From contig OZ024742.1 in assembly GCA_964016885.1 (NCBI GenBank), positions 175,026,001 through 175,090,000 of the forward strand: a stretch of 64,000 nt of DNA. Reading direction: 5' to 3'. Position numbers and translations under genes: made by a program. Shown one piece after another: positions 2,710 through 63,519 of the stretch. A model generated the notes under the pieces. The model was not told the origin of the DNA. It worked only from the letters and a program-made list of their open reading frames with translations, and ran no database searches. The stretch is from Eledone cirrhosa (Eukaryota). The first letter of the stretch is position 1, and each line of letters starts with the position of its first letter.

Positions 2710-5700
2710 CTATAGTCTGATGTAGAGTGAAGGCCCATTCACACGGGCCATTCTCGCCACTTTCACCCATCTTTCATAGAAACGGCTGGGGTGCAGCACC
2801 TCTCTCTCCATCCTGATCCTTCTTCCGAAATGATATCGGAAGAAAAGGACCAGTTGTTGGCCAGAGAGAAAGGTGTCTGACCTCAGTCCTTTCAGACGCG
2901 TCCACCATACAACCTCTTTCGCCATGGCTATTACGCACAGAAACACCGCCTCTCCTTCGTTTTTGAAGAGGGGAAGCGGCTTGATCGTTACAATAGACTC
3001 GGTGGTCAACCGGATCGGTCCCACCCTTGACAGCAGTTGTTCGACATAGCCCCACAGATCGGCAATGCCCGAGCAGTGTACCAATGCGTGTGCAACGGTT
3101 TCCTCGTCGCACACGCATCTGGGACAGACCTTTTTCGATGGGTCCCTACCCAGGCGCCCGTGTCTGTAGAGCCTTTCTCGAACGGGCAGAGCCCTTCTGT
3201 AGCATTGCCGGGCCAGGGACCTCTGGAAGTTATCCATGGGTCCCGGGCTGAATGTCCTACCGAACAGGATGGCCAGTTCGTCTTCCTCCATGACTAGGGC
3301 TTCTCCGAGGGCGTCGTCGCACCTGCTAACCACCAGCCCTCTATAGAATGACGAGGTGGATTCTCCACTGACAGCCGGGTCCGCCTGCCAGAGAGCCGTG
3401 AGCGCCTGGGCACACCCGCTGTGCCAGGCGCCCAGTTTTCTCGGTCTTTTCTTGACCCAGGATTGCAGCTCGGTGAGTGAGACGAGTCTGGGAAAGGCTC
3501 GCCTCACAAACGGGGCCCACACCGGTTGACCGAAGAGGAATACCTGAAGGTGCCGTAGCCTTAATGCGTGTTTACGTATCATTAGCCACGGCATTCCCAG
3601 CCCTGCTTTCGAAGGGTGTTGACAGCAGATGGATCTCCTCACCATAGGAGCCCGCTTCTTCCAAAGGAATTGGAAGAGTGCGCGCTCCATTTTGGCGAGC
3701 GTTTCCCTTGGGCAAGGCACCATGGTCAGGCGGTAGTAGATGACAGACGCTATATAAGTGTTCGCCACCTCCGCCCGACCTTTCAGGGACAGTTTGCACT
3801 CGGCCCACTTCTGGGTCAGTGCAAACACCCTGCTCGTCACCTCACCCCAGTTCTTCTCCACCTGGAGGTCTGGTCCGAACCAAACCCCGATCAACTTCAC
3901 CGGGACCTCCGTCCAGCGCCCGACGACGCCATCGGAGGGCATCGATCTGCCCCTCCACGTGCCGAGTTGCAGACCGATCGACTTGTCCCGGTTCAGCTTA
4001 GCCCCTGTAAACCTTTCGTACTCCTCCAGTAAGGTGCCGATCGCCCCGATTTCCGAGGCCGTCGACACCATTACTGTTACGTCATCGGCGTAGGCTGACA
4101 CCGCTTTCCGCAATCCCGGTTTCAACGGGATGCCCTGCAACAACTCCAACTTCCGCAGCAGTGGCTCTAGAGTCACTACATACAGAAGGGAGGAGAGAGG
4201 GCACCCCTGTCGGATTGACCGCGCGATTTCGAACGGCTCCGAGAGGTAGCCGTTCACCTTGACCCTAGAGCAGATGCGGCTGCTGTGCATGGCGTTGATC
4301 CAGCCCCTGAAAACGGGTCCGAAGCCTGCCGCCGCTAGCACCGTATCCAGGTAACCATGATCGACCCTATCGAATGCCTTAGATTGATCCAAGTTGATCA
4401 GGGCCCCACCAAAGCCGGGTTCGTTCCCAACCCTCTCTATGATGTATCGCATGAGGTGGAGGTTATCGTGGATGGACCTGGACGGGATAGCACATGTCTG
4501 CGCATCTCCCACCAGGTTGCCCACGACAAGCGCCAACCTCTTTGCTAGCACCTTGGCCAAAATCTGTAACTCTGTATTTATCAGAGTTATGGGCCTGAAA
4601 TTATTTATATCGTCCCCCTTGTTCTCGTCCTTCCTCACTAGCGTGACCACGCCCTTGCTCACAGCACAGGGAATTCTCCCGTTCTGTTGCCAGTTGCAGT
4701 AGACCGTCTCGAGGAGTTCGGGGAACAAGTCTGGCATAGCTAGATATAGTTCGTATGGAAGACCATCGAGACCCGGGGATTTGCGTTTGCCGCATTGGCT
4801 CAGCACGTCCTCTATCTCAGCGGCTGAAATCGGCTCCCCGCAGGACTTCGCCTCCCTGTCCGAGAGACGCGGCAGGCCGTCGATGTATGGACCGAAGTCC
4901 ACGTCCCCAACCGGCCCCCCGCCCCTTCCGAACAATTCGGCAAAGTGCTTTTGAAAAGCCTCGCACATCTGCTTAGGTTCAAGGATCACCCGTCCATCCT
5001 GGTCTCGCAAAGACCGGATAGTGGATCTGCTCCCTCTTTTGGCTTCTGTCACGCGGGCCCAGCTAACAGCTTTGGTCCCCTCGTTTCCCAGAGCACGTAT
5101 TTTGCTTCGGACGATGCAGCCTTCGTGTTTCGCGTCGAAGAACTGGCCCAGGGCCGTTCTTGACGCTAGCACTCTGGCCACGTCGCCGCTTCTAATTGCC
5201 TCTTCTACACTATCTACCAACTCCCTTTCCTTCCTATTTCTATTGGAGGCTAACTCCTTACTAAATTCTATAGAGACTACTCTAATCTCTCTTTTGAGAG
5301 ATCCCCACCACCTGCTGTTGACGATGGCGCCCGTCAACCGCTCCTTAACTAAAGTGCTAATCCGGTTCCTGTAAGCCTTACTTGCCGGTAAGGACAAGTT
5401 GAGCTTCCAGTAACCGGGTCCCTGTCTATGAGTTCTGTCAAGGTTGACCATGCAGGTCACTAATTTGTGGTCTGAATAGCCAACCATGCGCATTTTTGGA
5501 CAACTTAAAAAGTCCTTATCCTTAATTCTAACTAAGAACCTATCTAGGTACGACCTAGATGTTCCGCTACGATTTGCCCAAGTCCAGGTTGGCGCAGTCG
5601 GAAAATCTAGTCGATATCTATCGGCCAGGTCAAATCGACCGATTAATCCTTTGAGGCTATTACACCCCTCTCTATCGGGACAGGCCCCTACGTAGTCCCA

Positions 5701-6147
5701 GCGTGCATCTAGGATACCATTCCAGTCCCCCACTAATAGCAAGGAGCGGGACGTCCCTAGAAAAGTCTCCAGACGATGGAAGAAGTCCGGCCGCATTGAC
5801 CCGAAAGGGCCGTAGGCGGCTACCAACCTAAACGCTCCGCCTTTACCACTGCTAAGGTCCAGAACCACTAGTCGACCCTCCGGGTCCAAATGTACCGTCT
5901 GTGTTGCGAGACCCAGATGTTTTTGCAGCAGAACGACCACTCCACCCCCACCTCCGGGCTGACAGAGAGATGCGTGCATCTCAAAGTCATCAAAGGTGGG
6001 GGCCAGCTGTCGCACGTTGCTGATCCGGGCCTCGCAAATAACCATCACATCTATACGTTGTGACCTGAGGTCATTTAGAAGCATTGCTTGCTTCCAAGTT
6101 GAGCCCAGGCCACGCGCATTTAGACAGCCTACTTTTAGCATAGCCAT
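2710..6147 (-). CDS. Tx1 ORF2p: AP endonuclease, reverse transcriptase and C-terminal CCHC domain; uninterrupted
   Basis: GCLNARGL, GDWN, SYLDR, SDH (APE); KSPGLDG, FRPITLIN, DQSKAFD, RQGCPLS, YADD (RT); CPRC..ETVAHALVHC. First ATG at 6147; the track start at 6171 is a GTG. Confidence 0.95.
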   Translation of the reverse strand: MAMLKVGCLNARGLGSTWKQAMLLNDLRSQRIDVMVICEARISNVRQLAPTFDDFEMHASLCQPGGGGGVVVLLQKHLGLATQTVHLDPEGRLVVLDLSSGKGGAFRLVAAYGPFGSMRPDFFHRLETFLGTSRSLLLVGDWNGILDARWDYVGACPDREGCNSLKGLIGRFDLADRYRLDFPTAPTWTWANRSGTSRSYLDRFLVRIKDKDFLSCPKMRMVGYSDHKLVTCMVNLDRTHRQGPGYWKLNLSLPASKAYRNRISTLVKERLTGAIVNSRWWGSLKREIRVVSIEFSKELASNRNRKERELVDSVEEAIRSGDVARVLASRTALGQFFDAKHEGCIVRSKIRALGNEGTKAVSWARVTEAKRGSRSTIRSLRDQDGRVILEPKQMCEAFQKHFAELFGRGGGPVGDVDFGPYIDGLPRLSDREAKSCGEPISAAEIEDVLSQCGKRKSPGLDGLPYELYLAMPDLFPELLETVYCNWQQNGRIPCAVSKGVVTLVRKDENKGDDINNFRPITLINTELQILAKVLAKRLALVVGNLVGDAQTCAIPSRSIHDNLHLMRYIIERVGNEPGFGGALINLDQSKAFDRVDHGYLDTVLAAAGFGPVFRGWINAMHSSRICSRVKVNGYLSEPFEIARSIRQGCPLSSLLYVVTLEPLLRKLELLQGIPLKPGLRKAVSAYADDVTVMVSTASEIGAIGTLLEEYERFTGAKLNRDKSIGLQLGTWRGRSMPSDGVVGRWTEVPVKLIGVWFGPDLQVEKNWGEVTSRVFALTQKWAECKLSLKGRAEVANTYIASVIYYRLTMVPCPRETLAKMERALFQFLWKKRAPMVRRSICCQHPSKAGLGMPWLMIRKHALRLRHLQVFLFGQPVWAPFVRRAFPRLVSLTELQSWVKKRPRKLGAWHSGCAQALTALWQADPAVSGESTSSFYRGLVVSRCDDALGEALVMEEDELAILFGRTFSPGPMDNFQRSLARQCYRRALPVRERLYRHGRLGRDPSKKVCPRCVCDEETVAHALVHCSGIADLWGYVEQLLSRVGPIRLTTESIVTIKPLPLFKNEGEAVFLCVIAMAKEVVWWTRLKGLRSDTFLSGQQLVLFFRYHFGRRIRMEREVLHPSRFYERWVKVARMARVNGPSLYIRL

Positions 6148-6171
6148 GTTGGTGGTGAAGAGAAAAGGCAC

Positions 6172-7809
6172 TTACCTCTCTGCGTCCCGGGTATCGGGCT
6201 GCACAATTTCCATTAGGGTGGGGGATGGGTTGTTGGGTGGGGTGGTGGTTTGTGGAAGTGTAGGGGCATCAGTGTGTTGTGTGGTTGGGGAGCTTGGAGT
6301 TGTGTGGGTGTTTGGGTAGGGGGTGGGATAGTTTTTTAGGAAGACGCGGTTAATGGGCCCGACGCAGGGGGGAACACGTCCTCTTTAAAATTGTTTTTTA
6401 AAGTTTTATAGGTGTCCTGTGGGGCCTTAATCATTTTGAGGTGGGGGAAATCCCCTGCCTGGGTGAAGTTAGGCCCTTGTGTTTTTATTAGATTGTTGTT
6501 GTATACAATGTTTAACAGTTTTTTGTTTCTTGTGTTTATGTATGTGTATGCATGTTTTTGTTTTTGTGTGGTGTTTTTTGTTTGCTGTTGTTGTGAGCTC
6601 TTTTGTGTTGGTGTCAGTGTTATGTTTTGGGGAGGGGTTGTTTTCATTTGTGTGTGGTGTGTTTTCTTTTTTTTCTTTTGATTGTGTGGAAGTGCTCCTC
6701 CTCATCTGACGACGAACTAGGGTCATCTTCCGCGTTGGAGGGGAGGGTATATTTTCGGGTTGTGTTTGCGGTGCGGGTGTTTTGGAAATTGTTTTTGTTT
6801 TTTGAGTGGAGGAGATGGGTTGGACATTGTTTTGTTTTGGTTTGAGCTGTGGTGGTTGTTTTTGTAGTGGTAGTTGTGGTGATTGTGTTGGTTGTGCAGT
6901 TGTTGGTGGTGTAGGCAGGATTGGGGTTTTCTTATTAAGTTGGGGACAGACAGCCCTCAGGTGACCTCTGGTTCCGCAGAGGTAACACGAGGGCCGTCTA
7001 CCCTCAATGGTAATGTTGATGAAGGCTAGATCATCCAGTATGACGCGTTCAGGGATCTGGGCGATCCTTTCGGGCCTCATTTGAACTACAAGTTCGAGGC
7101 TCGTTCCACTGAACGCGTCACCCGATGCCTTTCCAATAGACACCAGCATGTCATCCTCCAGGTCCAGGAAACCTGTCAAAACCCACCATATGTCCATAAT
7201 CGGCAGGATGGTGTGGATTTTTATTTTTTGTGTTCTTCTACCCATGTACGTAGGGTAGAAGGTGTATGCGGTGGATGCGATTGGTTTGATGGACAGTTTC
7301 ACTGCTGTGTCCCTGTCCTTCATGAGAATGGATAGACTCCCGTAGAGTCTATCCTTCTGAATGAAGGTGATGTCCTTCATGACGTCTTTTAAAACCAGCT
7401 CTATCTCACTCTGTGATGGTTGAGCTGGTTTTTTACTTTTGTTCGAGATTGTCCTAAACATGACCGTGTTTAGGAGTCTCTGGCTTTTTAGTTCCGGGGG
7501 GGGGGGGGGATGGATTGTGAATGAACCATTTTCTCCGTACACTATATATTTTTTCGCATCTGCCAGTAGCTCCTTCGCTTTGGTTATATCTACTGGCAGA
7601 TAGTCGAGGGTTTTCCTTGTTGTCTCGGCGAAGGAGAAATTTTTTTTGTTTTTGTTGTTGTTGTCGTTGGTGGTGTTGTTGTTATCATTGTTGTTGTTGT
7701 CACCGTTTTTTGTCTTGTTGTTGTTATTGTTATTGGTGTTGTTTTCGTCCGTCGCATTGTTGTTGTTGTTGCTGTTGCTGGTGCCGCTGGTTCTTTGGGT
7801 TGTTGCCAT
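6172..7809 (-). CDS. Tx1 ORF1p, gag-like, with CCHC knuckle; C-terminal part broken by frameshifts
   Basis: Asn-rich N-terminus and CYLCGTRGHLRAVC (CX2CX4HX4C). Protein-like continuations occur in other frames: SSSSDEEEHFHTIKRKKRK; HAYTYINTRNKKLLNIVY..FPHLKMIK; and ..MEIVQPDTRDAER* ending at TAA 6172-6174. Confidence 0.85.
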
Positions 7810-7824
7810 GGCAACGTCAAGTTG

Positions 7825-12541: not shown

Positions 12542-12627
12542 AGCTACCTCACTATTGGGGTAAGTAAGTAGCTGATGAACTGTAACAACTGTGAAATGCA
12601 TGATTTTACTTCATTCTTGAGGTAGCT
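12542..12627 (+). ncRNA. Decayed minimal hammerhead-like motif inside a hairpin
   Basis: CTGATGA (12572)..GAAATGCAT (12593), enclosed by a perfect AGCTACCTCA/TGAGGTAGCT inverted repeat; proximal stems imperfect. Confidence 0.35.
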
Positions 12628-17994: not shown

Positions 17995-18529
17995 TCTAAA
18001 CTATAATAAAGTAAGGAGCGTAGGACTGCGTACAGTTTATAATTTTTTATCCCATAAGTAAAATAAGTTTGATTACTTTGAATAAATAATTGTTTCTAAT
18101 TTAGTAGATAAATTATGTAATATTCATTCATTACTTTGAATAAATAATGAATGAATATTACATAATTTATCTACTAAATTTCGTGGCTGTTGATTAAATA
18201 TATTTTGTTTACTTAAAGATTCACTTCTTTAAAATTTCTGAAATCTCAACACATCCGGTTGGCCATCGGTTAAATAAACATACTAATTTTCTATCACTAA
18301 TTTTCTCCTAATGCAGTTTATATATAGTATCGTCTATTTTAATGGTTTACGTTATTGATTAAATAAGACAGTGTAACGCAGTCTTTGTTCAATTTCTATT
18401 TATTATATATTGTCAATTACAATTTTACTTGATGTATCATATCTACATGTATATATACCTGCGTATAATATCAATATACACACTACACATGCTAGCAGAA
18501 AACCACCCGAAGAGTGGTTTTTCTGCTAG
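17995..18529 (+). mobile_element. Non-autonomous Helitron family H, copy A
   Basis: 5' TCTAAACTATAATAAAG; 3' hairpin CTAGCAGAAAACCAC..GTGGTTTTTCTGCTAG; sits between host A and T with no TSD; four more copies in the window. Confidence 0.8.
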
Positions 18530-18539
18530 TTATCATAAT

Positions 18540-18724
18540 TGTTTCTACTTTAGGAACAAGGCCAGCAATTACCCAGTGCATTACTGGTACTTTATTTTAT
18601 CGACCCCTTAAGGATGAAAGGCAAAGTCAACCTCGGCAGGATTTGAACTCAGATCGTAAAGGGACGTAACTATGCTGGAAAGCATGGCGTCCGACCCTCC
18701 ACCGATACTGCCAATCCACCGCCC
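18540..18724 (-). mobile_element. SINE family A, full length
   Basis: GGGCGGTGGATTGGCAGTATCGG head, B-box; near-perfect TSD TAGTTAT(C/T)ATAAT. Confidence 0.9.
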
Positions 18725-21794: not shown

Positions 21795-22056
21795 TATGTA
21801 TGAGTATAACACTATTATGAGTTATTATGAGTATATAACTATAATCACGCAAACACAAAATTACAAAAATGCACTCTCACGGACATAATTCACACAAATA
21901 TTCATACATTCACACATACATTGACACAAACACATACAGTCATGATAGCGTTGGATTTAATTGGAAATGGGAGGGTAAAACAAGTATAACGTTTTATTTA
22001 TTTATTAACTCTTTATTTATTTATTAATTATTTTTTTAAAAACTCATCTAATATAA

Positions 22057-22928
22057 CTAGCAGAAAAACACTCTATGGGTGGTTTTCTGCTAGCTTGTGC
22101 AGTGTGTATATTGATATTATACGCAAGTATATATGCATGTAGATATGAATCATCAAATAAAACCGTAATTGACAATATACACAGACATTGAACGAAGACT
22201 GTGTTACACTATCTTCTGTAATCAGTAATCCATAATACATTAAAAAAAAACACGATATTATATATAAACTGCATTAGGAGAAAGTTAGTGACAGAAATAT
22301 ATGTATATTTATTTAAACGATCGCTAACCGGAAGTGTTGACATTTGAAATTTTAAAGAAGTGAATATTTAAATAAGTAATAACATATATTTAATGAACAG
22401 CCACGAAATTTAGTAGATACATTGTAATATTCATTCATTATTTATTCAAGTGAATTGGCAGTATCGGTAGAGGGTCGGACGCCATGCTTTCCAGCATAGT
22501 TACGTCCCTTTACGATCTGAGTTCAAATCCCGCCGAGGTTGACTTTGCCTTTCATCCTTACGGGGTCGATAAAATAAAGTACCAGTAATGCACTGGGTGA
22601 TTGCTGGCCTTGTGCCTAAAGTAGAAACAATTATTTATTCAAAGTAAGGGGTGGTGGATTGGCAGTATCGGTAGAGGGTCAGACGCCATGCTTTCCAGCA
22701 TAGTTACGTCCCTTTACGATCTGAGTTCAAATCCCGTCGAGGTTTACTTTGCCTTTCATCCTTACGGGGTCGATAAAATAAAGTACCAGTAATGCACTGG
22801 GTAGTTGCTGGCCTTGTGCCTAAAGTAGAAACAATTATTTATTCAAAGTAACCCAACTTCTTTTACTAAGGGGGATAAAAAATATAAACCATACGCAGTC
22901 CCGCGTTCATACTTTATTATAGTTTAGA
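22057..22928 (-). mobile_element. Helitron family H, copy C, with two tandem family A SINEs (22450-22629, 22648-22833)
   Basis: Same TC/CTAG termini; ATTATTTATTCAA(AGTAA) repeated at 22437, 22630 and 22834. Confidence 0.85.
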
Positions 22929-23109
22929 TTAAGCACTGTTGTAAGCACATTGATTAGATATATATATAAATGTAATAACATATAAATTATGTTGGATGCA
23001 GACACACACACACATATATATACATATATATTTATATATATACACACACATACATACCACACCACAACGGCCACACACATATATCTATACATACATAGAC
23101 ATATATATA

Positions 23110-24588
23110 GGCGAAGGCTAGACGGAAGATCGCATGCACGAAGTCTGGTCTGAAGTACGCATGCGCGAAGACTGTTTCGAAGTGCGCATGGGCGAAGGCT
23201 GGTCCGAACTGCGCATGCGCGAAGGCTGGTTCATACTGCGCATTCGCGAAGCTTGATCCGTAATGCGCATGCGTGAAGTCTGGTACGTAATGCGCATGCG
23301 CTAAGGCTTGTCCGTACTGCGTATGGGTGAAGGCTGGTACAAAGTGCGCATGCGCGAAGGTTGATCCGTATAGCGCATGCGCAAAGGCTGGTCCGTACTG
23401 CACTTGCGCGAAGGCTGGTCCGTACTGCGCATGCGAAAAGGCTGGTCCGAAGTGGGCATGCAGGAAGTCTGGTCCGAAGGCGCATGCGTGAAGTTTGGTC
23501 CGAAGTGCGCATGCTCGAAGTCTGATGCAATGTGCGCATGCACGAAGTCTGGTCCGAAGTGCGCATGCGCGAAGTCTGGTCCAAAGTGCGCATGTGTGAA
23601 GGCGGGTCCGTACTGCACATGCGCGATGTCTGGTGCGAAGGTTGGTCCGTACTGCGCATGCGCGAAGGATGGTCCGTGCTGCGCATGCGCGAAATCTGGT
23701 CCGTACCTTGCATGTGCGAATGCTGGTCCTTACTATTAATGCGCGAATGCTGTTCCGTACTGCACATACGCAAAGTATGGGCCGAAGTGCACTTGCACGA
23801 AGTCTGGTTCGAAGTGCGCTTGCGAAACCTGGTCCGAGGTGCGCATGCGCGAAATCTGGTCCGAAGTCCACATGCGCGAAATCTGGTCTGAAGTGCACAT
23901 GCGCGAAGGCTGGTCAGAAATGCGCATGCGCTAAGGCTGGTCCGAAGTGCGCATGCCCGAAGTCTGACCCGTACTGTGCATGCGCGAATGCTGGTCCGTA
24001 CTGCTCATGCACGAAGGCTGGTCCGTACTGCACATGCGTAAAGTTTTGTCCGAAAGTGCGCATGCGCGAAGTCTAATCCGCAGTGCGCATGCGCGAAGGC
24101 TGGTCCGTACTGCGCATGCGCGATCTGGTCCGTAAATTGCATTCGTGAAGGCTGGTCCGTACCGCGAATGCATGACGGCTGGGCCGTACTGCGCATGCAC
24201 GAAATCTGATCCGAAGTGTGCATGCGCGAAGACTGCTCCGCACTGCGCAAGCACGAAGGCTAGTCTCCGTACTGCGTATGCACGAAGGCTTGCCCAAAGT
24301 GCACATGCGTTAAGGCTGGTCCAAAGTGGGCTTGCACGAAGGCTGGCCGAAGTTCGCATGTGAGAAGGCTGGACCGTACTGCGCATGCGCGAAGTCTGGT
24401 TCATACTCTGCATGCGCGAAGGCTGGTGAGAAGTGTGCATGCGCGAAGGCTGGTCCGAAGTTCACATGCGCAAAGTTTGCTCCGTACTGCGCATGCGCGA
24501 AGGCTGGTCCGAAGTGCGCATGCGCGAAGACTGGTCCGTACTGCGCACGCGTGAAAGCTGGTCAGTACTGCGCATGCACGAAGGCTTG
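23110..24588. repeat. 27-bp GC-rich minisatellite, about 55 units, each with TGCGCATGCGC
   Basis: Consensus TGCGCATGCGCGAAGGCTGGTCCG(TAC/AAG); flanked by (TA)n. The 9-codon period explains the many ORFs here. Confidence 0.97.
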
Positions 24589-24719
24589 TATATATAAATA
24601 TATATACAATATATTTCTATTCTCCAACTATTGATTTTCTTCATCTATCCAATCCCCTCTTACATATTCCAGCACTGTCTTTTCACCAGCACCTATTCAC
24701 CCGCCCACACACACACACA

Positions 24720-25098: not shown

Positions 25099-25262
25099 TA
25101 TATATATATATATATATCTTTCAGCTTTTTTTCACTAATCCTTTTGTTACTTTATTTCTAAAGAAAAACACTATCTATTATTTTCAAAGGTTTTTGAAAT
25201 TAATGAAGAATTTGAAGGAAATTTTCCTTATTAAGCTAATGATTGGAATATAAAATTATAAT

Positions 25263-25448
25263 TGTTTCTACTTTTGGCACAAGGCCAGCAAATTACCCAG
25301 TGCATTACTGGTACTTTTATTTTATCGACCCCGTAAGGATGAAAGACAAAGTCAACCTCGGCGGGATTTGAACTGAGATCGTAAAGGGACGTAACTATGC
25401 TGGAAAGCATGGCGTCCGACCCTCTACCGATACTGCCAATCCACCGCC
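25263..25448 (-). mobile_element. SINE family A, full length
   Basis: TAAAATTATAAT duplicated on both flanks. Confidence 0.9.
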
Positions 25449-25976
25449 AATGTAAAATTATAATGCAGTGATTTTAGAGAAATATAAACACTTTAAAATA
25501 AACAATCAGAGGCAGTTTCAGGTGGTTTGGAATCAAACGATTTGATGTAAAATGGAAAATTGTATCATTTGAAATACCTTAGGTAAAAAATTAAAAAACT
25601 ATTCAGATTTGTTACCTCAGAAACGTCTGAAATGACATTTTCCACTCTTCAACTAAATTTGTGGCTTTGTGCCTACATAAGAAATCTACAAAGCATTTGA
25701 TTAAATGCCTTAACATTGGTCTAGCTATTAGCACTCTATGTTTGAATCCTACCAAAGTAAACGGTGCATTTTTTCCTTACAGGGGCAATAAAATAAAGTG
25801 TCAGGCCTATATTGGGGGTCGATGTAATTGACAGAGTATTTCATTAGATGGAAAAGGTTAACGTTTTTATATTTATCTAATCAACTTTTATCATAATGTT
25901 ATGTAAGAACTTTGGTTAAAATATGATCTAAACCCCAGATAAATTGGTGACTTTCATTAGAAATATGATGAAAGTA

Positions 25977-28100: not shown

Positions 28101-29710
28101 ATAGGCAAATTGTTGTAAAGATTTACAGTAGTCTTGAGATGAGTAAATAATTCCTTGTGAGTGGAATTTGATAATGGAATCTGCAGAAGCCCATCGTGTA
28201 TGTATGTATGTGTGTGTTTATGTTTGCATCTGTGTCACAAAATTTAGAGGTTCCACAAAATAACAGTGATTCAATAAAACATGTACAAGATTTTAAGAAA
28301 GAAGTATACAATTAATCTGTTTATATCTCTTTGTCCATCAGAACTAATAGACGTTACAACCTCTCCTCATATACACAAAACTATTAATAATTTTACATGT
28401 CCTCATCTCATAAATTTAAATAAACTTAAAAATCTCATAATTCCATATTCTCCTAATCTTGATTAAATCAAGTTGGTGCTTCAACATATTTGCAGTCTGA
28501 GGACTGAAATGAGTAAAATAATAAGCACAAACACTGTGTGAATAACATTGAGCTATGAAATATTGGGAAATATATAAACACTTGCCCACTTGCTATAATG
28601 AAAAATAACATCACACACAGCAATGAGCCTTTGTTGTTAACCCATTCGTAACCATATTTCTATCAAAATATGTTAATTTTCTTTCAAATAATTAAGAAAA
28701 TAATCAAGAATCTCAAGATATTTTGTGATACTATCCACTTCTGATTCTATAAAACAAAATCACTCATATAAAAGAGTTCTTTGTTTAACTTAAAATCTTC
28801 TAACATAATGTGGTATAAGAACAATTTGTTAAGTTAAATTACAAATATTTTCTTGATAATAAAATAACTAAAAGTGTTTTGTAAACCTCTTAACGCTATT
28901 CATTAATCAATTGAAATAGAGTGTATGTCATTAGAAAGAGGTAAGCTGGTTTTTGGAACATTATTTCTGTAAAATTATGATGGAAGGTTTTTAGATAAAA
29001 ATAAGCATTTTAAAAGAAGCAATATTGTATTGTACAAGCAGGGGCGGTTCCAGATGGTTTGGTTTCAAAAGGGGTTAAGTGTGAACATTTTTCTATTTAT
29101 TTAACTGTCGAAAATCAGAGAGTTCTAATCATAAAAAATATAAATCTTCATTACAGCCACTTCTTAGTCATTAGGCTTGTTCTGCGTTACATGAAAATAT
29201 ATTTCTTTTTTTTCAACTCATTTATCGCTTAACTTCCAAATATGATTTAGTCATTCTATTCAGTTACTGCAACTATTAAATTGTATTCACCCTTAATCTC
29301 TTCCTATCTGTCTCCTATCAATTACTGCCATACTAAAACAAACACATATATATATACAACATAGTTTCCAAATGAACTCGCCCCTACTTGATTAGGCTGA
29401 AAATTCAGAGAAATTCAGTCATACCATGAAACAAATAAAGATTAATTGGAATTTCTTTCCTATTTTTCTTCCATGAAACACTTCTCAGTTCATAACTCTA
29501 TTCAGTTAACCATTTTGGGTTGATGGTGTTTATATTTATTTATTAAGATGGTTGGCATTGAGAAGGGCATCCAGCCATAGAAAACCAAGCAGAATATGGA
29601 TCATATGAGCAAGACATGTTCACTTGATCTGTCTGGTCACATAACATGACACCTCATCTAACCCACAACAGCATAGAAAATAGATGTTAGACATAGATAA
29701 TAATAATAAT

Positions 29711-29895
29711 TGTTTCTACCTTTGACACAAGGCCAGCAATTACCCAGTGCATTACTGGTACTTTTATTTTATTGACCCCGTAAGGATGAAAGGCAAAGTT
29801 AACCTCGGCGGGATTTGAACTCAGAATGGCAAGGGCCGTAACTCTATGCGTCAAAGCATGGCGTCCGACCCTCTACCGATACTGCCAATCCACCG
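29711..29895 (-). mobile_element. SINE family A, full length
   Basis: Head, B-box and GTAGAAACA end present; next to (TAA)n. Confidence 0.9.
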
Positions 29896-30368: not shown

Positions 30369-31345
30369 CTAGCAGAAAAACCACCCTTCAAATAAAATCG
30401 TAATTGAAAATATGCACTGAAATTGAAGAGAGACTGTGTTACACTCTCTTCTGTAATCAATAAAGTAATCCATGATACATTTAAAAAAGACAATATTATA
30501 TATAAACTGCATTAGGAAATATTAGCAACATAAATATAAACCTTATATAATGATGCAAATATATGAACGTTTATATAAGTGATGTAATAAGTGTTATAAT
30601 ATAATTGTTTCTAGTTTTGGCACAAGGCCAGCAATTAGCCCAGTATGTTACTGGTACTTTATTTTATCGACCCCGTAAGGATGAAAGGCAAAGTTAACCT
30701 CAGCGGGATTTGAACTCAGACCATAAAGGGCTGTAACTCTTTGTTGCAAAGCATGGCGTCCGACCGTCTACTAATACTGCCAATCCACCGCCCTTATATA
30801 ATAAGTGTTATAATATAATTGTTTCTACTTTTGGCACAAGGCCAGAAATTATCCAGTGTATTACTGGTACTTTATTTTATCGATCCTGTAAGGATGAAAG
30901 GCAAAGTTATCCTCAGCGGGATACTGCTAATCCAGGACGCTAATCAGAAGTCTTAACATTTGAAAATTTTAAAGAAGTGAATCTTGAAATAAGCAATAAA
31001 ATTATTTATATTTGATCAAGAGTTATGAAATTTAGAACATAAATTATGTAATATTCATTCATTATTTATTCAATTGGCAGTATCAGTAGAGGGTCGGACG
31101 CCATGCTTTGATGCATAGAGTTATGGCCTTTGCCATTCTGAGTTCAAATCCCGCCGAGGTTAAATTTGCCTTTCATCCTTACGGGGTCAATAAAATAAAG
31201 TACGAGTAATGCACTGGGTAATTGCTGGCCTTGTGCCAAACGTAGAAACAATTATTTATTCAAACTAATCCAACTTATTTTACAAACAGGATAACAAGAT
31301 ATATTCAGGACGCAGCCCCACACGCCTCCCTTTATTTTATTATGA
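30369..31345 (-). mobile_element. Helitron family H, copy D, with three family A SINEs (30606-30793, 30820-30935, 31074-31250)
   Basis: CTAG end at 30369; TSD ATTATTTATTCAA at 31061 and 31251; ATAAGTGTTATAATATAAT duplicated around the first SINE. Confidence 0.8.
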
Positions 31346-43053: not shown

Positions 43054-43204
43054 ATTTGAGGTGAATAACTGGGATAGAGCAATTGCCATAATAGTCAACT
43101 GAAGAGTTCTAACACATAATATTATGCAAGATCCTTTGTTGTGATATGTTAGAAAACTAATTATATAACTGTGTGATATTTATCAATGTAAAAGCTATAT
43201 AAAT

Positions 43205-43712
43205 CAGCAGAAAACCCTTCGAGTGGTTTTCTGCTAGCATGTGTAGTGTGCATATTGATATTATACGCAAATATATATGCATATAGATATGATACGTCAA
43301 ATAAAATTATAATTGACAATATGCACAGAAATTGAAGAGAGACTGTTACACCGTCTTCTGTAATGAGTAAAGTAATCCATGATTAAAAAAAGTGAAATTT
43401 AATGCAAACGAAAAGAGAGAAAATTAGCAACAAAAATTTGAATGCTATGATATAACGATGCAAATATATAGACGTTTATATAAACGATATGTGATATAGC
43501 GTCCATTATATTATAACCGGAAGTAATGACATTTGAAAATTTTAAAAGAAGTGAATCTTGAAATAAGCAATCATTATATATAAGAATATATTTATGTTAA
43601 ATCAACAGCTACGAAATTTAGTACATATATTATGTAATATTCATTAATTATTTATTCAAAGTAATCTAAATTATTTTACAAATGGGATTAAAAAATATCC
43701 TTTTATTAAAGT
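43205..43712 (-). mobile_element. Helitron family H, copy E, SINE site empty
   Basis: Hairpin AGCAGAAAACC..GGTTTTCTGCT; single ATTATTTATTCAAAGTAA at 43647-43664. Confidence 0.8.
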
Positions 43713-43838
43713 ATATATATATATATATATATATAGAAATTTTGTATTTCTAAAGAAACACGGTTTTAGTAAGCTGTAGCTGTGCAAACACCGGGGCTAA
43801 CACCCTCTGGTGGTGTCCAGCAGAAGCAAGGGGGGACA

Positions 43839-43882
43839 ACAGTCTTCGCATTTTAGGCTCTCCTGGCCTTCCTCAGGACGGT
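43839..43882 (-). ncRNA. Minimal type I hammerhead, copy 1 (mutated)
   Basis: ACCGTC-CTGAGGA-AGGC-cagGaga-GCCT-aAAA-TGCG-aA-GACtGT. Confidence 0.65.
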
Positions 43883-44154
43883 CCCTTCAACCGCTTGCGA
43901 CTGCTGGACTTGAAAACAGTCGAGAATATATAGTTTTCTCGTCTGTGTAAATGAGGTGATTAATCTCATTTGCATATGAAGCTGCGTAACTTGGCTCAAC
44001 TGATAATAGAATAGTATTTTGCTTCAAGTATAGCTTTATACAAATATGTATAGAAATTTCGTAATTCTAAAGAAACACGGATTTAGGAAGCCATGGCTAT
44101 GCAAACACTGGGGCTAACAGCCTCTGGTGGTGTCCAGCAGAAGCAAGGAGGACA

Positions 44155-44198
44155 ACCGTCTATGCATTTCAGGATTGACTGGCCTTCCTCTGGACGGT
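44155..44198 (-). ncRNA. Minimal type I hammerhead, copy 2 (mutated)
   Basis: ACCGTC-CaGAGGA-AGG-ccagtcaat-CCT-GAAA-TGCA-TA-GACGGT. Confidence 0.7.
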
Positions 44199-44205
44199 CC
44201 CTCCC

Positions 44206-44428
44206 AGGGTAAACAATATTAATTGTGTAATTTGTTGTTAGTGTCCAAATGAATAAATTCTTTGTTGCTGCTTCCAACACGTGAGCAACAAACATAGAGT
44301 TGACTGTGGCAGAAACATGTAGTAGAGAGATCAAGTCCAACTACCTTGAGGGATTGACCCTGAGATTTCTTAATTAAAATAACAAAATTTAGTTTGACTG
44401 GTAACTGAAGCCCCTTAAATTCAACCTC
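44206..44428 (-). mobile_element. Helitron RepHel PIF1-like helicase C-terminal fragment
   Basis: EFKGLQLPVKLNFVILIKKSQGQSLKVVGLDLSTTCFCHSQLYVCCSRV..NIVY matches the Helitron INKSQGQ..FSHGQLYVA.SRV motif. Duplicated TG/CA-rich blocks at 44465-44830 probably belong to the same element. Confidence 0.85.
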
Positions 44429-51758: not shown

Positions 51759-52097
51759 ATAATATAAGATCAAAAGATGGTTAAAGGAGTTCAATATATT
51801 TTATTATGCGCATTTCAAAAACAAACATCATCAAACAATAATATTTGTGTTTTCATCAGATAAAACAGGAGAACATGATATGAAGGCTAAAAAAACACTT
51901 GTTGATAGTGCAGTTATGATATGTTGATATGTTGATTTAAAACTGCACTATCAACAAGTGTTTTTTTAGCCTTCATATCATGTTCTCCTGTTTTATCTGA
52001 TGAAAACACAAATATTATTGTTTGATGATGTTTGTTTTTGAAATGCGCATAATAAAATATATTGAACTCCTTTAACCATCTTTTGATCTTATATTAT
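51759..52097. repeat. Perfect long inverted repeat, 157-bp arms, 25-bp spacer
   Basis: 51759-51915 is the reverse complement of 51941-52097; no mismatch found by eye. Confidence 0.95.
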
Positions 52098-52123
52098 ATA
52101 TATATATATATATATGCATATAT

Positions 52124-53425
52124 ATGCTCTTCCTTGTGAGGCAATTACAGGAAAAGTACCTAGCTAAAAGTAAGCCACTCTACTTGGCATTTGTCGACCT
52201 TGAGAAAGCCTTTGACAGAGTTCTACGTGCAGTAATCTGGTGGGCTCTTAGAAAACTAGGAGTAGATGAATGGCTTGTGAAAGCGGTACAAGCCATGTAT
52301 AGGGGAGCAGTCAGCAAAGTTAGGATTGGCAATGAGTATAGCGAGGAATTTAGCGTACAGGTTGGGGTCCACCAGGGCTCTGTTCTTAGCCCTCTCCTGT
52401 TCATCATAGTCCTGCAGGCAATAACGGAGGAGTTTAAGACCGGATGCCCATGGGAACTCCTGTATGCTGATGACCTCGCACTCATAGCTGAATCTATGGT
52501 AGAACTAGAGAATAAATTCCAAACCTGGAAGCAGGGACTAGAGAGAAAGGGCCTCAAAGTCAACATGACAAAGACTAAGGTCCTTATAAGTAGACGAGAA
52601 AACAGAACCCAGATCCCCTCAGGGAAATGGCCTTGCTCAGTATGTAGGAAAGGTGTAGGTAGGAACTCCATTCTTTGCCCCAAATGCAAACAATGGGTAC
52701 ACAAGAGATGTAGCGGGATCTCAGGAAGCTTAATTAAGAATGTAGGATTCACATGCAGCAGCTGTGCTGAAACAGCAAGCAAACAGCCACAGGAAACAAG
52801 TACCACCAATCTCTGGGAGGGCCCTGTAGAAACAGTAGACAGCTTCTGCTACCTAGGTGACCGAATTAGCAACGGAGGTGGGTGCTCAGAAAGTACAATA
52901 ACTAGGGTAAGAACGGGATGGAAGAAGTTTAGGGAACTACTACCACTGCTAGCTGCAAAAGGCTTCTCCCTCAGAATGAAAGGCAGACTGTATGATGCGT
53001 GTATCCGAACAGCGATGTTGCATGGTAGTGAGACCTGGGCGCTGAAGGTGGAAGACTTACGTAGATTAGAGAGAAACGAAGCCTGCATGCTCCGATGGAT
53101 GTGTAACAGTAATATACGTGAACGACAAAGCATAAATGAATTGAGAGAGAGACTGAGCATAAGAGGAATCAAATGCTGCGTGCAGGAGAGGCGGTTACGC
53201 TGGTATGGACATGTGATGCGTATGAAGGATGACAGCTGCATAAAAAGGTGCAGAGCACTAGAAGTTGATGGAAACCGCGGAGTGGGGAGACCCAAGATGA
53301 CTTGGGATGAGGTGATAAAAGCCGACCTTACCCAACTACACCTCTCAAAGTCAATGACACACGACCGTGACTTCTGGCGTCACGCAGTAATACAGGGTAC
53401 CCGACCTCCCATGGGTACATGCTGA
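52124..53425 (+). CDS. RTE reverse transcriptase C-terminal half with embedded PHD-like finger (partial)
   Basis: FVDLEKAFD, GVHQGSVLSP, YADD, GLKVNMTKTK, C4HC3 insert, FCYLG, RRLRWYGHV, GRPKMTW. The ATG is at the truncation junction. Confidence 0.92.
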   Translation: MLFLVRQLQEKYLAKSKPLYLAFVDLEKAFDRVLRAVIWWALRKLGVDEWLVKAVQAMYRGAVSKVRIGNEYSEEFSVQVGVHQGSVLSPLLFIIVLQAITEEFKTGCPWELLYADDLALIAESMVELENKFQTWKQGLERKGLKVNMTKTKVLISRRENRTQIPSGKWPCSVCRKGVGRNSILCPKCKQWVHKRCSGISGSLIKNVGFTCSSCAETASKQPQETSTTNLWEGPVETVDSFCYLGDRISNGGGCSESTITRVRTGWKKFRELLPLLAAKGFSLRMKGRLYDACIRTAMLHGSETWALKVEDLRRLERNEACMLRWMCNSNIRERQSINELRERLSIRGIKCCVQERRLRWYGHVMRMKDDSCIKRCRALEVDGNRGVGRPKMTWDEVIKADLTQLHLSKSMTHDRDFWRHAVIQGTRPPMGTC

Positions 53426-55049: not shown

Positions 55050-57260
55050 GCAGAGAAACATGCTTTTCTGGAAAGGTAATGATGATGGGGTAGGTGGAGT
55101 AGGCATTCTTCTAGATGAGAAGTGAATAAATAAGTTAATTAAGGTCGCTAGCATTAGTGACAGAATTATCAAGCTTAGAATAGTCATAGACAATATAATA
55201 ATTGTTTTTACTTTGGGCAAAAGGCCAGCAATTATCCCAGTATATTACTGGTGCTTTATTTTATCGACATAGTAAGGAGGAAAGGGAAAGTTAACCTCGG
55301 CAGGATTTGAACTCAGACCACAAAGGGCCATAACTCTATGTTGCAAAGCATGGCATTCGACCCTCTACCAATACTGCCACTCCAAATGACAATTATTTCT
55401 AGCTATGCATCACAAGCAGGACTACATAAAGAACAAAAGGACTGCTATTATGAGTAACATTTACTTCATAACTATTAGAAAACAAGATAGACAAATGGTT
55501 ATAAAGTTAAGACTTCCCTGGCGAAGAATGCACTACCCAACATTAGTTAGTTATTAGTGACATCAGCATAAGCACAAGACAAAGGTAGTGACATGGGAAA
55601 TCTAGAGGAGTGTTTGGAAGCTAAAGGAACATCCAGTTAACTGTAGATTCAAGGTAGCTATGCATGGGGCATATAAGGAAGACGAGATAGACACATATGA
55701 CCTAGAAGGCAATTGGATGTTCCTATGTGGCAATCTGCTGCAGACAACTGACAAAGTGTGGCCTGATGTTGGCACAGCACAAAGGATAGAGCCATTAATG
55801 CCAAGAAACAGGTGTGAAAAGACTTGAAAATAGCGGCAGCAGCAACAAGTACTAGGGAGCTAAAGGTGAAGCAAGTTAACAGGTCTACATAGTATGATAA
55901 GAGTCTAAAAAAAAGGTTTGCCAATGTCTTGCAACATAAAGATCAGAAACATAAGGTGTTCTACATTGCAAGACATGTGTCTGTATGAATTAAGATATTG
56001 TTGAGGAAAAGTGAATTCAAATTGTTACCAGTGCACTTATCATAAAAAAGAGGCCTGGAAATGTCATTCTGAGAGTTTAATGAATGTGGAGAATGAATGT
56101 GGAGGAAGGGAGACTTCTTCAATCTGACCCTACTAAGAGGCCACCTATCACATTGGTAGTTATAAGATTGCAAAAAAGGAATCATGGAGATGAAAAATGA
56201 TAAAGCTGCTGGACGGTCTGAGATAGTCAGTGAGTTGCTGAAAGCATCTGGGGAAGTAGGAACTGAACTAATCACCTGAATAAACAATCAGACAATACAG
56301 GATGCAGTCATATCCAATGACTGGCAAAGCAGCATAATCAAAACTTTCTAGACGGTGATGCCCTAAAAAAGACAAATTACAGGAGAATAAATCTCTTGGC
56401 CCAAGGTATGGAAGTGGCAGAAAGCCTTCTAACTCAATAAAATAGGGAAAGAGTCAAATTAGATGAGATGCAGTTCAGTTTAATGCCAGGGAGGAGCACC
56501 ACAGATGCCATCTTTTTAATAAGATAACTACAAGAGATTTTCTTTTTTTTTTCATTTAGGGAAGGCTTTTGACAGAGTACCACGATCTGTCATTTGGTGG
56601 TCCTTAAGGACACTAGGGGTAGAAGAGTGGCTTGTGAAAGCAGTCCAAGCCATGTAGAGAGGAACTATCAGTAAAATTAGTAAGGAGTGAATTTAGTGAG
56701 GAATTCAAGGTGCATCAGAGTTCTATTCTTAGCCCACTAGGCCATAACAGAGGAGTTTAAAACTCATTGTCCATGGGAACGACTGTATGTTGATGGTTTA
56801 GTTGTCATTACTGAATCTGTGGAAGAACTAGAAAGCAAATTCTAGCTAAGGAAACAGAACTTAAAATCAAAAGAGCTGAGTTTAAACTTAGCAAAAGGCA
56901 AAGTTAATAAGTAGGAAGGAAGATAGGACCGTGATCCCATTTGGGTAGTGGCCTTGCCAACTTGTAGAAAAGGAGTAGGTATAAACTCTATGTGATGTAT
57001 ACAACGCAAATCGTTGGTAGAAAAGAAGTGTAGTGGGATAGCAGGAAAAGAAGACTTCAAATGTAATGGATATTTAGGGTCAATTGATAGTATGTATATA
57101 ATAAATGTTCAGGATCAATTGATCGTTAGAGTGCCACTGATATAAATCTCTTTCAATTCCAGGAAGGATCCATGGAAGGGGTTGATATAATTAGCTATGA
57201 AAGAGAGTGCTCTGATAGTACAGAAGCTAGAATAAGGACAGATTTTGTTTCTGTGGGTGA
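55050..57260 (+). mobile_element. Old, heavily decayed RTE LINE (EN-RT-PHD), interrupted by a family A SINE at ~55204-55385
   Basis: FWKGNDDGVGGVGILL..ISDRIIKLR; KAAGRSEIVSELLKASGEVG; DEMQFSLMPGRSTTDAIF; KAFDRVPR; CRKGVG.NS. Confidence 0.85.
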
Positions 57261-58974: not shown

Positions 58975-59052
58975 TATATATATATATATATGAAAAAAAG
59001 GAAAAGAATGACTTCACTTGTAGTTCTAAATAATTTGATTTAATTTTATAAT

Positions 59053-59639
59053 TGTTTCTACTTTTGGCACAAGGCCAGCAATTACGCAGTGCATTACTGG
59101 TACTTTATTTTATCGACCTCATAAGGATGAAAGGCAGAGTTAACCTCGGCAGGATTTGAACTCAGAATGGCAAGGGCAGTAACTCTATGCATCAAAGCAT
59201 GGCGTCCGACCCTCTACAGATAGTGCCAATCCACCACCATTTAATTTTATATTATAATATTATAAAATTAATCAAATTACTTAGTGAAGTCATTCTTTTC
59301 CTTTTTTCAAATATACGGAAATGTACCAAAGATCTCACACATTTTCCAATATATATATATATATATATATACACAAATTTAGTTGAATGCATATATTACT
59401 GAAACAATTCCTCTAAGAGTACATCTGTAATTGTTCCCATAGTGATAATATTAATCATTAAATCAAGGTTTTCAATATTTACTATCCTTGTCTTTGTATC
59501 CTGGCTACAAGATATTTGTGCACAGAATGCATTATTTCCTGCCGAGGTTGACTTTGCCTTTCATCCTTACGGGGTCGATAAAATAAAGTACCAGTAATGC
59601 ACTGGGATAATTGCTGGCCTTGTGCCTAAAGTAGAAACA
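59053..59639. mobile_element. Two family A SINEs in opposite orientation (59053-59238 minus, 59539-59639 plus)
   Basis: Second copy has TSD ATTATTTC. Confidence 0.85.
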
Positions 59640-61605: not shown

Positions 61606-62512
61606 GGTATTTAAAACATAGTAAGAAAGCAGACTAATTCATGCTCTTGAGAGGTGAACTGAGAGATAAGTTGAGAAAAAAAATTAAAAAGTGGTATATC
61701 TCAACCGTAGCACCCCAAAGACAAGATTGCAAAATCACTGCCTTAGACAACAGCTAGCAACACCAACTGCATCAGCCATTCTAATTCACAATGTTTCTTC
61801 GCCATATATGATGCCTTCTTCCCAAATTTATTGTAGAAAAGGGGAGCTGTCCAGAGACTGAGGTCATCGGAGGTCTTGATACTAACTGACACAAAAAAGA
61901 AAGTGTCTCTCAAAGCCTAGTTTTAGTTATATTCTGCTCCTATGCATTATGGGTGGCAGTACCCAAGCTTGTTTGTATGAAATATCTAGGGAATTGTATA
62001 CAAATTTGGTATGAAAACTAGACTAGATGTAAAATATAGGTCCTTGAAAATCTGGTAATAAGCCTGGGTGAGTTGTGAAATGTAGGCCCCATTTCAAAAT
62101 GTTCATTAAGTGTTTTAATAATCAGTGCTAAAATATAATTAAACTAGGTTTCACTAAATGTTTTGAAATACAGTCTCAGTGACTTCTCATATTTTGCTTT
62201 GCATGGTAAAATTGTTATAACCTGTGTTAATATATGTTTATTATGACCTTTTGTTTGCTCATTATGTCACTCTGAAGTGCAAAACATAAAGTACTAAATC
62301 TTATGATTTATATATGGGGCACCAGTATACACTGATATTCCCCCCTCCATACACACGAGCACACATTTCTGTGTATATATCATGACTCATACACTGTTCA
62401 CTTTCCTGACATTTGTACATTATTCTATGTACCATACATGTATCTTTGATGAGTTGTAGTGCACCTGAACACTGCACAAAATAACTTTTCATTATTTAAT
62501 TGGCATTATTTA

Positions 62513-62687
62513 ATTGACAGTATCGGTAGAGGGTTGGACATGCTTTCTAGCATAGAGTTACGCCCCTTTACGATCTGAGTTCAAATCCCGCCAAGGTTAA
62601 CTTTGCCTTTCATCCATACGGGGTCGATAAAATAAAGTACCAGTAATGCACTGGGTAATTGCCAGCCTTGTGCCAAAAGTAGAAACA
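62513..62687 (+). mobile_element. SINE family A
   Basis: TSD ATTATTTAA; 5' junction ATTATTTAATTG is duplicated. Confidence 0.85.
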
Positions 62688-63519
62688 ATTATTTAAAAGA
62701 CATATTGCATACATGATATACGTAAAATTAACCAAAAATAATTGATTTTTAAAAACTAGCACTTTGGAGTAATTATCCCCTTCAAAATCATAGACCCATG
62801 CCAAATAGATAAACTAGCATGCTGGTCTGTTCTAACGTGCTTAAGACCGTACATTCTGAAATTGTTACTTAGTATTATGTAATTCTGCCTTATTTTCGGC
62901 TAGTTTTCTATTCTCCCAGTAAAACCTCAAGTTGGAATATTTACAGTAGTATTACTATTCCTGATTTATTATATTTTCTTCTTTTCTATCTTTCTTTGTT
63001 TCTTCTTTCCTTCCTTTTGTCTCCCTTTTCTTCCTTGTCCAATTTCTAATCAATCCAATTTACAACAACAGTCTTCTCTTACTTTTGAAATTATGGTTTA
63101 GACAGAAGCAGTAATAAATAATTTGTCAAGTCAATAACTCAATGCTAACACAATGAATTATGAAATGAATGTCTTTGAAAATATTCTGAAGTGTTTCATA
63201 GTTCAGCATATCATTTGCTATTTTTCGTAACACTACAATGTAATCTATAGTAGAAGTTAAAGGTATTACAGTGGCAACATAGTTGAAATAATTATTTCAT
63301 GTAAATGACAATTTTCAAAAGTTACAGCTGAAGTGATGCCATTTCAAAACCAATATTGCTGTGAGTATCCAGTTTAGAATGAATACATATCAATGTGTAT
63401 TGTAAGAGAAAACTAAAAGGGTTGGTGCTAGGAAAGGCATCTGGCTGTAAAATATTGCTTCAATTAGAATGCTTTCTTTCATGGAGCCTGCAAGGTTAAC
63501 CTCTGCTTTTGCATTAGTC

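Follow-up and report, generated by a model that had tools for sequence, protein, structure and literature searches.

Two hammerhead-like motifs stand one repeat unit apart on the minus strand of the 64-kb window (the whole stretch of DNA analyzed here), and they raise the question of what kind of element left them: a retrozyme, the truncated end of a Penelope-like element (PLE), or a repeat of some other sort. The first-pass annotation had read them as tandem minimal hammerheads of a retrozyme-like unit that would release a 316-nt monomer. We are fairly confident that the locus is instead an old, mutated 1.5-unit copy from a many-copy family of 316-bp hammerhead repeats, likely a PLE-mobilized non-LTR retrozyme, which appears to lie inside a Helitron. 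Judged by its letters, this particular copy is probably dead.

Four of the seven public runs aligned to positions 43620-44340, Helitron flanks included, at 80% likeness. The contigs of X1 and X2 come from a single sample of organism A, possibly the source of the window; X5 consists of RAD reads from another sample of organism A, and X4 of contigs from organism B. The family figures given below rest on the 40 variant rows (of 154), 24 loose ends (of 956), 15 joints (of 64), and 24 pieces (of 9,475) that were listed.

Architecture of the insertion

The whole insertion (43732-44206, minus strand) spans 475 bp and amounts to 1.5 units of an apparently non-coding 316-bp repeat of the retrozyme type. 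In the direction of the minus strand, a repeat alignment delimits an upstream (5′) repeat (44049-44206) made up of hammerhead A and a tail of ~110 nt, and a downstream (3′) repeat (43732-43890) made up of hammerhead B and its tail, which runs into a (TA)12 tract. Between them lies the spacer (43891-44048, minus strand), the part of the unit that is present once at the locus; it exists in many copies in the family, as well as in organism B. The two direct repeats described earlier are real: they are 159 bp long and identical in 136 of 159 alignment columns (43732-43890 versus 44049-44206), and a 1-nt indel separates a part with an offset of 316 from one with an offset of 317. The right boundary, formerly placed at 44202, belongs at 44206, since the majority letters at 43887 and 43889 match the right copy and the loose ends at 44206 continue into the spacer. 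The 158 bp between the repeats are without a reverse transcriptase (RT) or GIY-YIG ORF, the natural 316-nt monomer has a GC content of 42%, and no further copy of the 316-bp repeat was found elsewhere in the 64-kb window.

The Helitron on both sides of the unit

Immediately to the right of the insertion (44207-44422, minus strand) lies the C-terminal part of a Pif1-type Helitron helicase, frameshifted and ending in NIVYP at the insertion point. This fragment matches Helraiser (7lcc_A, E 3.9e-5) and, in a HMMER search, 1,952 proteins at E<=0.001, and tblastn places it at 44206-44422; a word-index search with the same Helitron piece returned nothing at E<=1e-5, whereas HMMER did match. Among the best 150 of the 1,952 matches, 4 to 6 residues stand between the N[IV]V[YF] motif and the end in 45 of 78 cases, and these residues are typically P/K/Q, E/Q, V/A/I, and L. 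A spider was the only organism named among the Helitron matches. Beyond the (TA)12 tract, on its left, come minus-strand letters that can be read as the rest of a V codon, an L codon, and a stop, and then a repeat that ends in a hairpin. We read 43706-43713 as the probable last helicase codons and stop, and 43203-43711 (minus strand) as the continued host, those putative codons together with a Helitron-type 3′ region and its terminal hairpin. This 3′ repeat has the highest depth of all in the run alignment, and two other copies of it in the window (18130-18533 and 22051-22449) have the hairpin and end in CTAG.

Helitron sequence thus flanks the unit on both sides in one orientation, and four of the six X4 Helitron pieces listed end at 44204-44206. 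The unit therefore most likely landed among the final codons of the Helitron ORF, with the loss of ~3 target letters. The earlier statement that the unit abuts a helicase fragment is accurate as far as adjacency goes but incomplete, as the unit appears to sit inside the Helitron and to split its last helicase codons. Alternatively, those codon letters and the TA tract may be a decayed extension of copy B, and the ungapped spacing fits this as well. The (TA)12 tract itself (43712-43735) stands at the 3′ end of the element, and its last 4 nt are common to the repeat. No target-site duplication of at least 7 nt was found across the two ends, and the TA tract blurs the 3′ end; in metazoan non-LTR retrozymes such duplications, when present, exceed 4 bp. 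TA tracts are described as preferred targets of PLEs (PMC8557442).

The wider window is microsatellite-rich, LINE-rich, and 35% GC, a composition that would suit an octopus; none of eight ORFs taken from it had an exact match. An apparently intact two-ORF LINE of the L1/Tx1-like kind occupies 2713-7824 (minus strand), with a zinc-knuckle ORF1 of 451 aa and an endonuclease-RT ORF2 of 1,153 aa from stop to stop; it is GC-rich and therefore probably young. A second LINE RT fragment (52076-53422, plus strand) carries a PHD finger after the RT domain and has many relatives; the named LINE matches are to a hydrozoan and lancelets at 48-57%, plus one entry under a bacterial name. A GC-richer complex minisatellite lies at 23100-24590; its units measure ~27 bp, and both of its strands contain long open frames. 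A dispersed SINE-like repeat of ~185 bp has at least 10 copies in the window at 83-97% identity, among them 18535-18720, 22450-22840, 25255-25450, 29700-29895, 30600-30790, 31070-31260, 55195-55385, 59045-59235, and 62510-62695.

Two hammerheads, each broken in a different place

A descriptor scan places the core of hammerhead A at 44155-44198 (minus strand), where majority letters restore the motif. Its helix I (44193-44198/44155-44160) has 6 bp and may extend beyond a 2-nt bulge to ~44142/44205. The CUGANGA box (44186-44192) reads CAGAGGA, U4 having changed to A; helix II (44171-44185) has its outer pair broken at 44174; the GAAA box (44167-44170) and an ATGCAT palindrome (44162-44167) follow, and the predicted cut falls after AUA, between 44161 and 44160. 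Hammerhead B (43839-43882, minus strand), placed by the same scan, has majority letters equal to those of the other copy. Its CUGANGA box (43870-43876, CUGAGGA) and helix II (43855-43869) are intact; G12 has become A (43854) and U16.1 has become A (43846), one further change has occurred in the palindrome (16.2) and one in helix I, and the predicted cut lies between 43845 and 43844. C3 of the two minus-strand motifs is at 44192 and 43876. The exact spacing of 316 first reported is borne out by the predicted cuts, 44161/44160 and 43845/43844, which are 316 nt apart, and so is the observation that the two hammerheads are mutated at different positions, A being without U4 and B without G12 and U16.1.

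Taken singly, the motifs are inconspicuous. A strict descriptor matches neither copy, and a relaxed scan (at most three deviations) returns 13 sites in the window, these two and 11 others, so that the single motifs are not above background. Each folds no better than shuffles (z of +1.2 and −0.06). Rfam reports no hammerhead in the whole window at E<=1, nor in 43800-44230 at E<=10, because the motifs are too decayed or helix III is too short. One of the other hammerhead-like sites, at 12566-12611 (plus strand), is AT-rich, with an exact CUGAUGA and GAAA, one deviation from the relaxed descriptor, and then ATGCAT; no second copy of it was seen, and it may be a product of chance.

Taken together, the two copies tell more. 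When either copy's letter is allowed in each column, one perfect descriptor match results, and none of 20,000 column shuffles gives such a match (the core boxes alone are matched by 315 of 20,000). The earlier claim that combining the copies yields a complete motif therefore holds, but the CpG restoration that accompanied it is unsupported. At 43847 the other copy's letter accounts for 237.5 of 241.5 of X1 contig depth, which gives ATGCAT in place of the proposed ACGCGT; since ATGCAT is itself a palindrome, the restoration is unnecessary.

The label "minimal" also has to be given up. Helix I is 6 bp long and helix II 4 bp, while helix III consists of 1 bp plus a palindromic loop of 4 nt, lengths that are canonical for metazoan type I hammerheads as described by Cervera and de la Peña (2014; PMC4209133). 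The same source gives minimal hammerheads a helix II of 7-8 bp, a helix I of 4-5 bp, a bulged base after A9, and a G10.1-C11.1 pair; the minimal features are absent at this locus, where helix II has 4 bp, helix I has 6 bp, and there is no bulge.

Majority letters of a many-copy family

The unit belongs to a large family. Across 43620-44340, 4,420 contigs aligned in X1 and 4,450 in X2. Summed depth per bin of the unit in X1 runs from 1,496 to 173,250, versus 14.9 for the contig identical to the locus, figures that are no copy number and read only as many copies, probably thousands. Dozens to over 100 distinct contigs cover each variant site, at 100-10,000 times the depth of the locus-specific contig.

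Every core position broken at the locus is restored by the majority in X1: U4 at 44191 (77 contigs, depth 8,291 of 8,507), the helix II pair at 44174 (101 contigs, 60,468 of 60,945), G12 at 43854 (22 contigs, 319 of 372), and U16.1 at 43846 (18 contigs, 229 of 242). The free core position N7, by comparison, varies, with 14,141 of 14,720 of depth at 43872 differing from the window. The majority letters give CUGANGA, GAAA, A15.1-U16.1, A17, and helices I and II; the possibility, raised with the initial description, that a family consensus would lack the core is thus answered by its presence. The main subfamily carries A10.1-U11.1 and an AUA cut site. The conserved pair at 10.1/11.1 is G10.1-C11.1 according to PMC4209133, and AUA is reported as a natural but slower hammerhead cut site (PMC1636495).

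Of the 40 variant rows listed, 25 fall in the repeats and were compared; 17 of the 23 differences between the copies are private changes, 9 in B (left) and 8 in A (right), and 6 are undecided, so each copy has drifted ~5-7% from the majority. One letter is common to both copies against the majority (43802/44119), as expected if both come from one template. No copy with two intact consecutive hammerheads was seen among the contigs, which are short, with no listed piece spanning the stretch, and no multimer of at least two full units was seen among these short contigs either. An exact-pattern search of viral contigs and prokaryote genomes gave 0 further copies, and in metagenome contigs only one stretch, an unrelated hammerhead-like motif. 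This motif (L001, 1995-2045, plus strand, on a 29-kb contig) has an AGGC/GCCU helix II and a helix I that pairs imperfectly, in a neighborhood that looks prokaryotic.

A second subfamily with a re-paired helix II

Many contigs leave the alignment within the hammerhead. Loose ends occur behind 44170 in 37 contigs of X1, 39 of X2, and 13 of X4, and before 43894 in 35 contigs of X1 and 37 of X2, with an agreement of 0.70-0.76 along consensus lines computed by program. Read by eye on the minus strand, they contain a perfect CUGAUGA box, a helix I with one G-U change, and a helix II of GAAC/GUUC versus AGGC/GCCU, with a 7-nt loop that differs by one letter. Three of the four helix II pairs are thus changed on both sides, and the changes include the standard G10.1-C11.1. 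A low-agreement loose end of this second subfamily (X2, 43834, 0.57) has its GAAA box broken. With joints that lead from 44170 back to 43910 (261), 55 letters remain for the hammerhead part, so the second subfamily fits the same unit length.

Depth in X4 over the first subfamily's core is nearly nil (16 and 0), and organism B for this reason seems to hold mostly the second form. A helix II re-paired on both strands of the stem suggests that the ribozyme has been under selection. Cricket satellite hammerheads are known to have compensatory changes at 10.1/11.1 (PMC2837043).

A closed unit, probably not a truncated Penelope

A retrozyme and a truncated Penelope-like element predict different junctions. 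The main competitor of the retrozyme reading, which we regard as unlikely, is that the locus holds two 5′-truncated ends of an autonomous PLE arranged head to tail (a pseudo-LTR pair), with the spacer formed by the 3′ end of the ORF and the 3′ UTR. Several features of the locus are those of PLEs: the partial tandem, a hammerhead near the 3′ end, and the (TA)n target. Two of the three minus-strand frames of the spacer are also open, over 56-59 codons, and a low-copy autonomous partner would be invisible in the run alignment; in the 64-kb window itself, no Penelope partner was found.

If the locus were such a pair, the tail-to-spacer junction should be unique to it, yet this junction recurs. The wrap-around near 44048 is present in X1 pieces covering 43908-44070 (28 other letters) and 44021-44172 (19), the listed X1 contigs bridging 44048 by 22-28 letters, which is under our 31-letter-per-side rule. 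Depth at 44042 is 26,638, and no loose end at the 44048 junction stands among the six listed for each of X1 and X2. Behind 44043, 109 X5 reads, possibly from one locus, have a loose end in which 25 of 30 letters, compared by eye, agree with the tail. The hammerhead-to-spacer junction recurs as well, with loose ends behind 44206 in 34 and 24 contigs. Since all junctions of the unit recur, the wrap-around included, the unit is a closed, apparently non-coding one and not a one-off truncated Penelope; the concern that the spacer might simply be the end of a PLE ORF is countered by the recurrence of its junction with the tail in other copies.

The open frames argue in the same direction. One of them has a stop at 44002 in the majority letters (1,440 of 1,536 of X1 depth), and stops close the other from the junction to 44023; a deletion of 1 nt at 44042 is frequent (3,654 of 26,638). 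Pfam returned no match for the two spacer frames tested, a weak negative given how short these pieces are, and Atlas gave no usable match for the one frame submitted. Nor does the hammerhead have the bulged base and long helix II that mark the minimal motifs of PLEs. At the level of the family, the initial proposal of a retrozyme-like unit is therefore upheld by the majority core, the second subfamily, the closed unit, the 42% GC, and the absence of a protein family match. The choice once posed between retrozyme and Penelope stands only in part, as the two are partly one thing, because a recent preprint argues that non-LTR retrozymes derive from PLEs as non-autonomous elements (Li, Clavereau, and Pollet 2026, bioRxiv 10.64898/2026.07.22.740005).

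A SINE-like or satellite-like repeat that happens to carry a hammerhead, and that spreads through linear RNA or DNA duplication with no circle, the half-copy being a local duplication, is slightly less probable still. The non-majority letter shared at 43802/44119 is what a local duplication would give, and contigs as short as these revealed no multimers; repeated rounds of copying from one template, however, would be just as likely to leave such a shared letter. Against this reading, too, in the family as a whole the parts of the unit adjoin one another in a closed circle, the re-paired helix II of the second subfamily speaks for selection on the ribozyme, and the unit has no Pol III A or B box pattern. 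A chance resemblance to a hammerhead, pieced together from two mutated repeats, might be suggested by the failure of each copy on the strict descriptor, the shuffle-like folds, the silence of Rfam, and the 11 other relaxed matches. This reading is largely refuted by the family data and very improbable, given that no shuffle in 20,000 gives a perfect match, that the core bases missing here are exactly those supplied by the majority of independent copies, and that N7 varies and helix II is re-paired in the second subfamily.

A proposed route to the 1.5-unit copy

For the retrozyme reading that we prefer, the following course can be proposed. Intact copies would be transcribed past two hammerheads, and the two motifs would pair through ATGCAT as a double hammerhead, helix III being one pair with a palindromic loop, and cut after AUA. 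A host ligase would close the 316-nt piece into a circle, a Penelope-type reverse transcriptase would copy the circle, or else an uncut multimer, through more than a single round, and the product would be inserted at a TA. The insertion starts ~45 nt upstream of the first cut site and has a whole ribozyme at each end. One pass along a linear cut monomer cannot yield a 475-bp product with a complete ribozyme at each end; its length and both ribozymes would require a template that is circular or multimeric.

Each core of a double hammerhead is made of the boxes of one copy and the cut site of the other. At the locus, one core would be without G12, and the other would be without U4 and face a substrate without U16.1, so that monomer release is unlikely and the locus is predicted to be inactive in the double-hammerhead form. 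The expectation that cleavage at both sites would free a 316-nt monomer from this locus is accordingly not supported, both enzyme halves and one substrate half carrying core changes. Eight of nine predicted Xenopus retrozyme dimers showed no cleavage in vitro (bioRxiv 10.64898/2026.07.22.740005).

The octamer hairpin and the predicted fold

The spacer contains a 10-bp inverted repeat (43946-43975; arms 43946-43955 and 43965-43974) that holds a perfect octamer (43968-43975). With one octamer in the unit and nine in the window, ~0.04 would be expected per 316 bp, a figure to be read in the knowledge that the octamer was noticed after the fact. The deepest bins of the unit are 43945-43969 in X1 and X2 and 43945-43994 in X4. 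We regard the octamer hairpin as a lead only, which may be an internal promoter element. The promoter of newt satellite 2 includes an octamer-like element. According to PMC2220036, which cites Coats et al. 1994, this is an internal Pol II promoter of the snRNA type.

The natural decayed monomer has a circular minimum free energy of −83.0, with z of −3.1 against 200 dinucleotide shuffles. The opposite strand (43845-44160, plus) folds more stably, at z −6.5 versus −3.1 (200 shuffles each).

A far-reaching version of the retrozyme reading would have the lineage common to at least two related animal species and still expressed as an abundant 316-nt circle, with helix II swapped between subfamilies (one of them A10.1-U11.1) and transcription from an octamer-based snRNA-type internal promoter, as in newt satellite 2. 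We consider this conjunction improbable. If it were true, an octamer-based snRNA-type promoter would be a general solution for the expression of animal retrozymes in all tissues.

Comparison with known systems

A search of the literature on hammerheads and retrozymes in cephalopods, octopus, and squid found no such family by title or abstract; repeat databases and most subscription papers fell outside the search. The main text of an Octopus vulgaris repeat paper mentions ribozyme, hammerhead, and retrozyme 0 times. The locus likely represents a new family of a known kind, an animal non-LTR retrozyme that was likely mobilized by Penelope. As the kind is well described and the copy probably dead, a specialist would not be surprised. 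The family adds one more to the animal retrozymes and offers a tidy case of an insertion that is longer than one unit and bears a complete ribozyme at either end, which is what the circular-template model predicts. Its two natural helix II variants lend themselves to testing how much tolerance the ribozyme has for A10.1-U11.1, and its conserved octamer hairpin gives a testable clue to the transcription of retrozymes.

Newt satellite 2 is likewise a hammerhead repeat, of ~330 bp, and the octamer of the present unit lies in the best-conserved part of the spacer. The PLE pseudo-LTRs described in PMC4209133 share with the locus a type I motif in two direct repeats, a palindromic loop 3, and a dimer-dependent design. 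Unlike them, it has no RT or GIY-YIG ORF between the repeats, and its hammerheads have canonical helices and no bulged base. The Penelope-like landing features, a partial tandem and a TA-microsatellite site (the latter as in PMC8557442), are present at this one site. With the retrozymes of Li et al. (2026) the unit has in common the pLTR-like partial tandem, a length within their range of 51-972 bp, and a TA-rich landing site; their survey is mainly of vertebrates, and under their rule for "active" retrozymes, two consecutive complete motifs, the locus fails, since neither copy passes alone.

The closest likeness is to the metazoan non-LTR retrozymes of Cervera and de la Peña (2020; PMC7229834), whose units measure 220-245 nt in corals, 350-390 nt in mussels, and 330-350 nt in axolotl; the authors assign canonical motifs to retrozymes and minimal ones to PLEs. 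The present locus departs from that description in its 1.5 units, in the decay of both motifs, in the A10.1-U11.1 pair and AUA site of the main subfamily, and in the lack of a detected target-site duplication. It agrees with it in being an apparently non-coding head-to-tail unit of 150-450 bp, with a GC content under 45%, canonical type I hammerheads, many copies, and a self-paired predicted fold, and in having two ribozyme subfamilies in one genome, as the mussel and axolotl retrozymes do.
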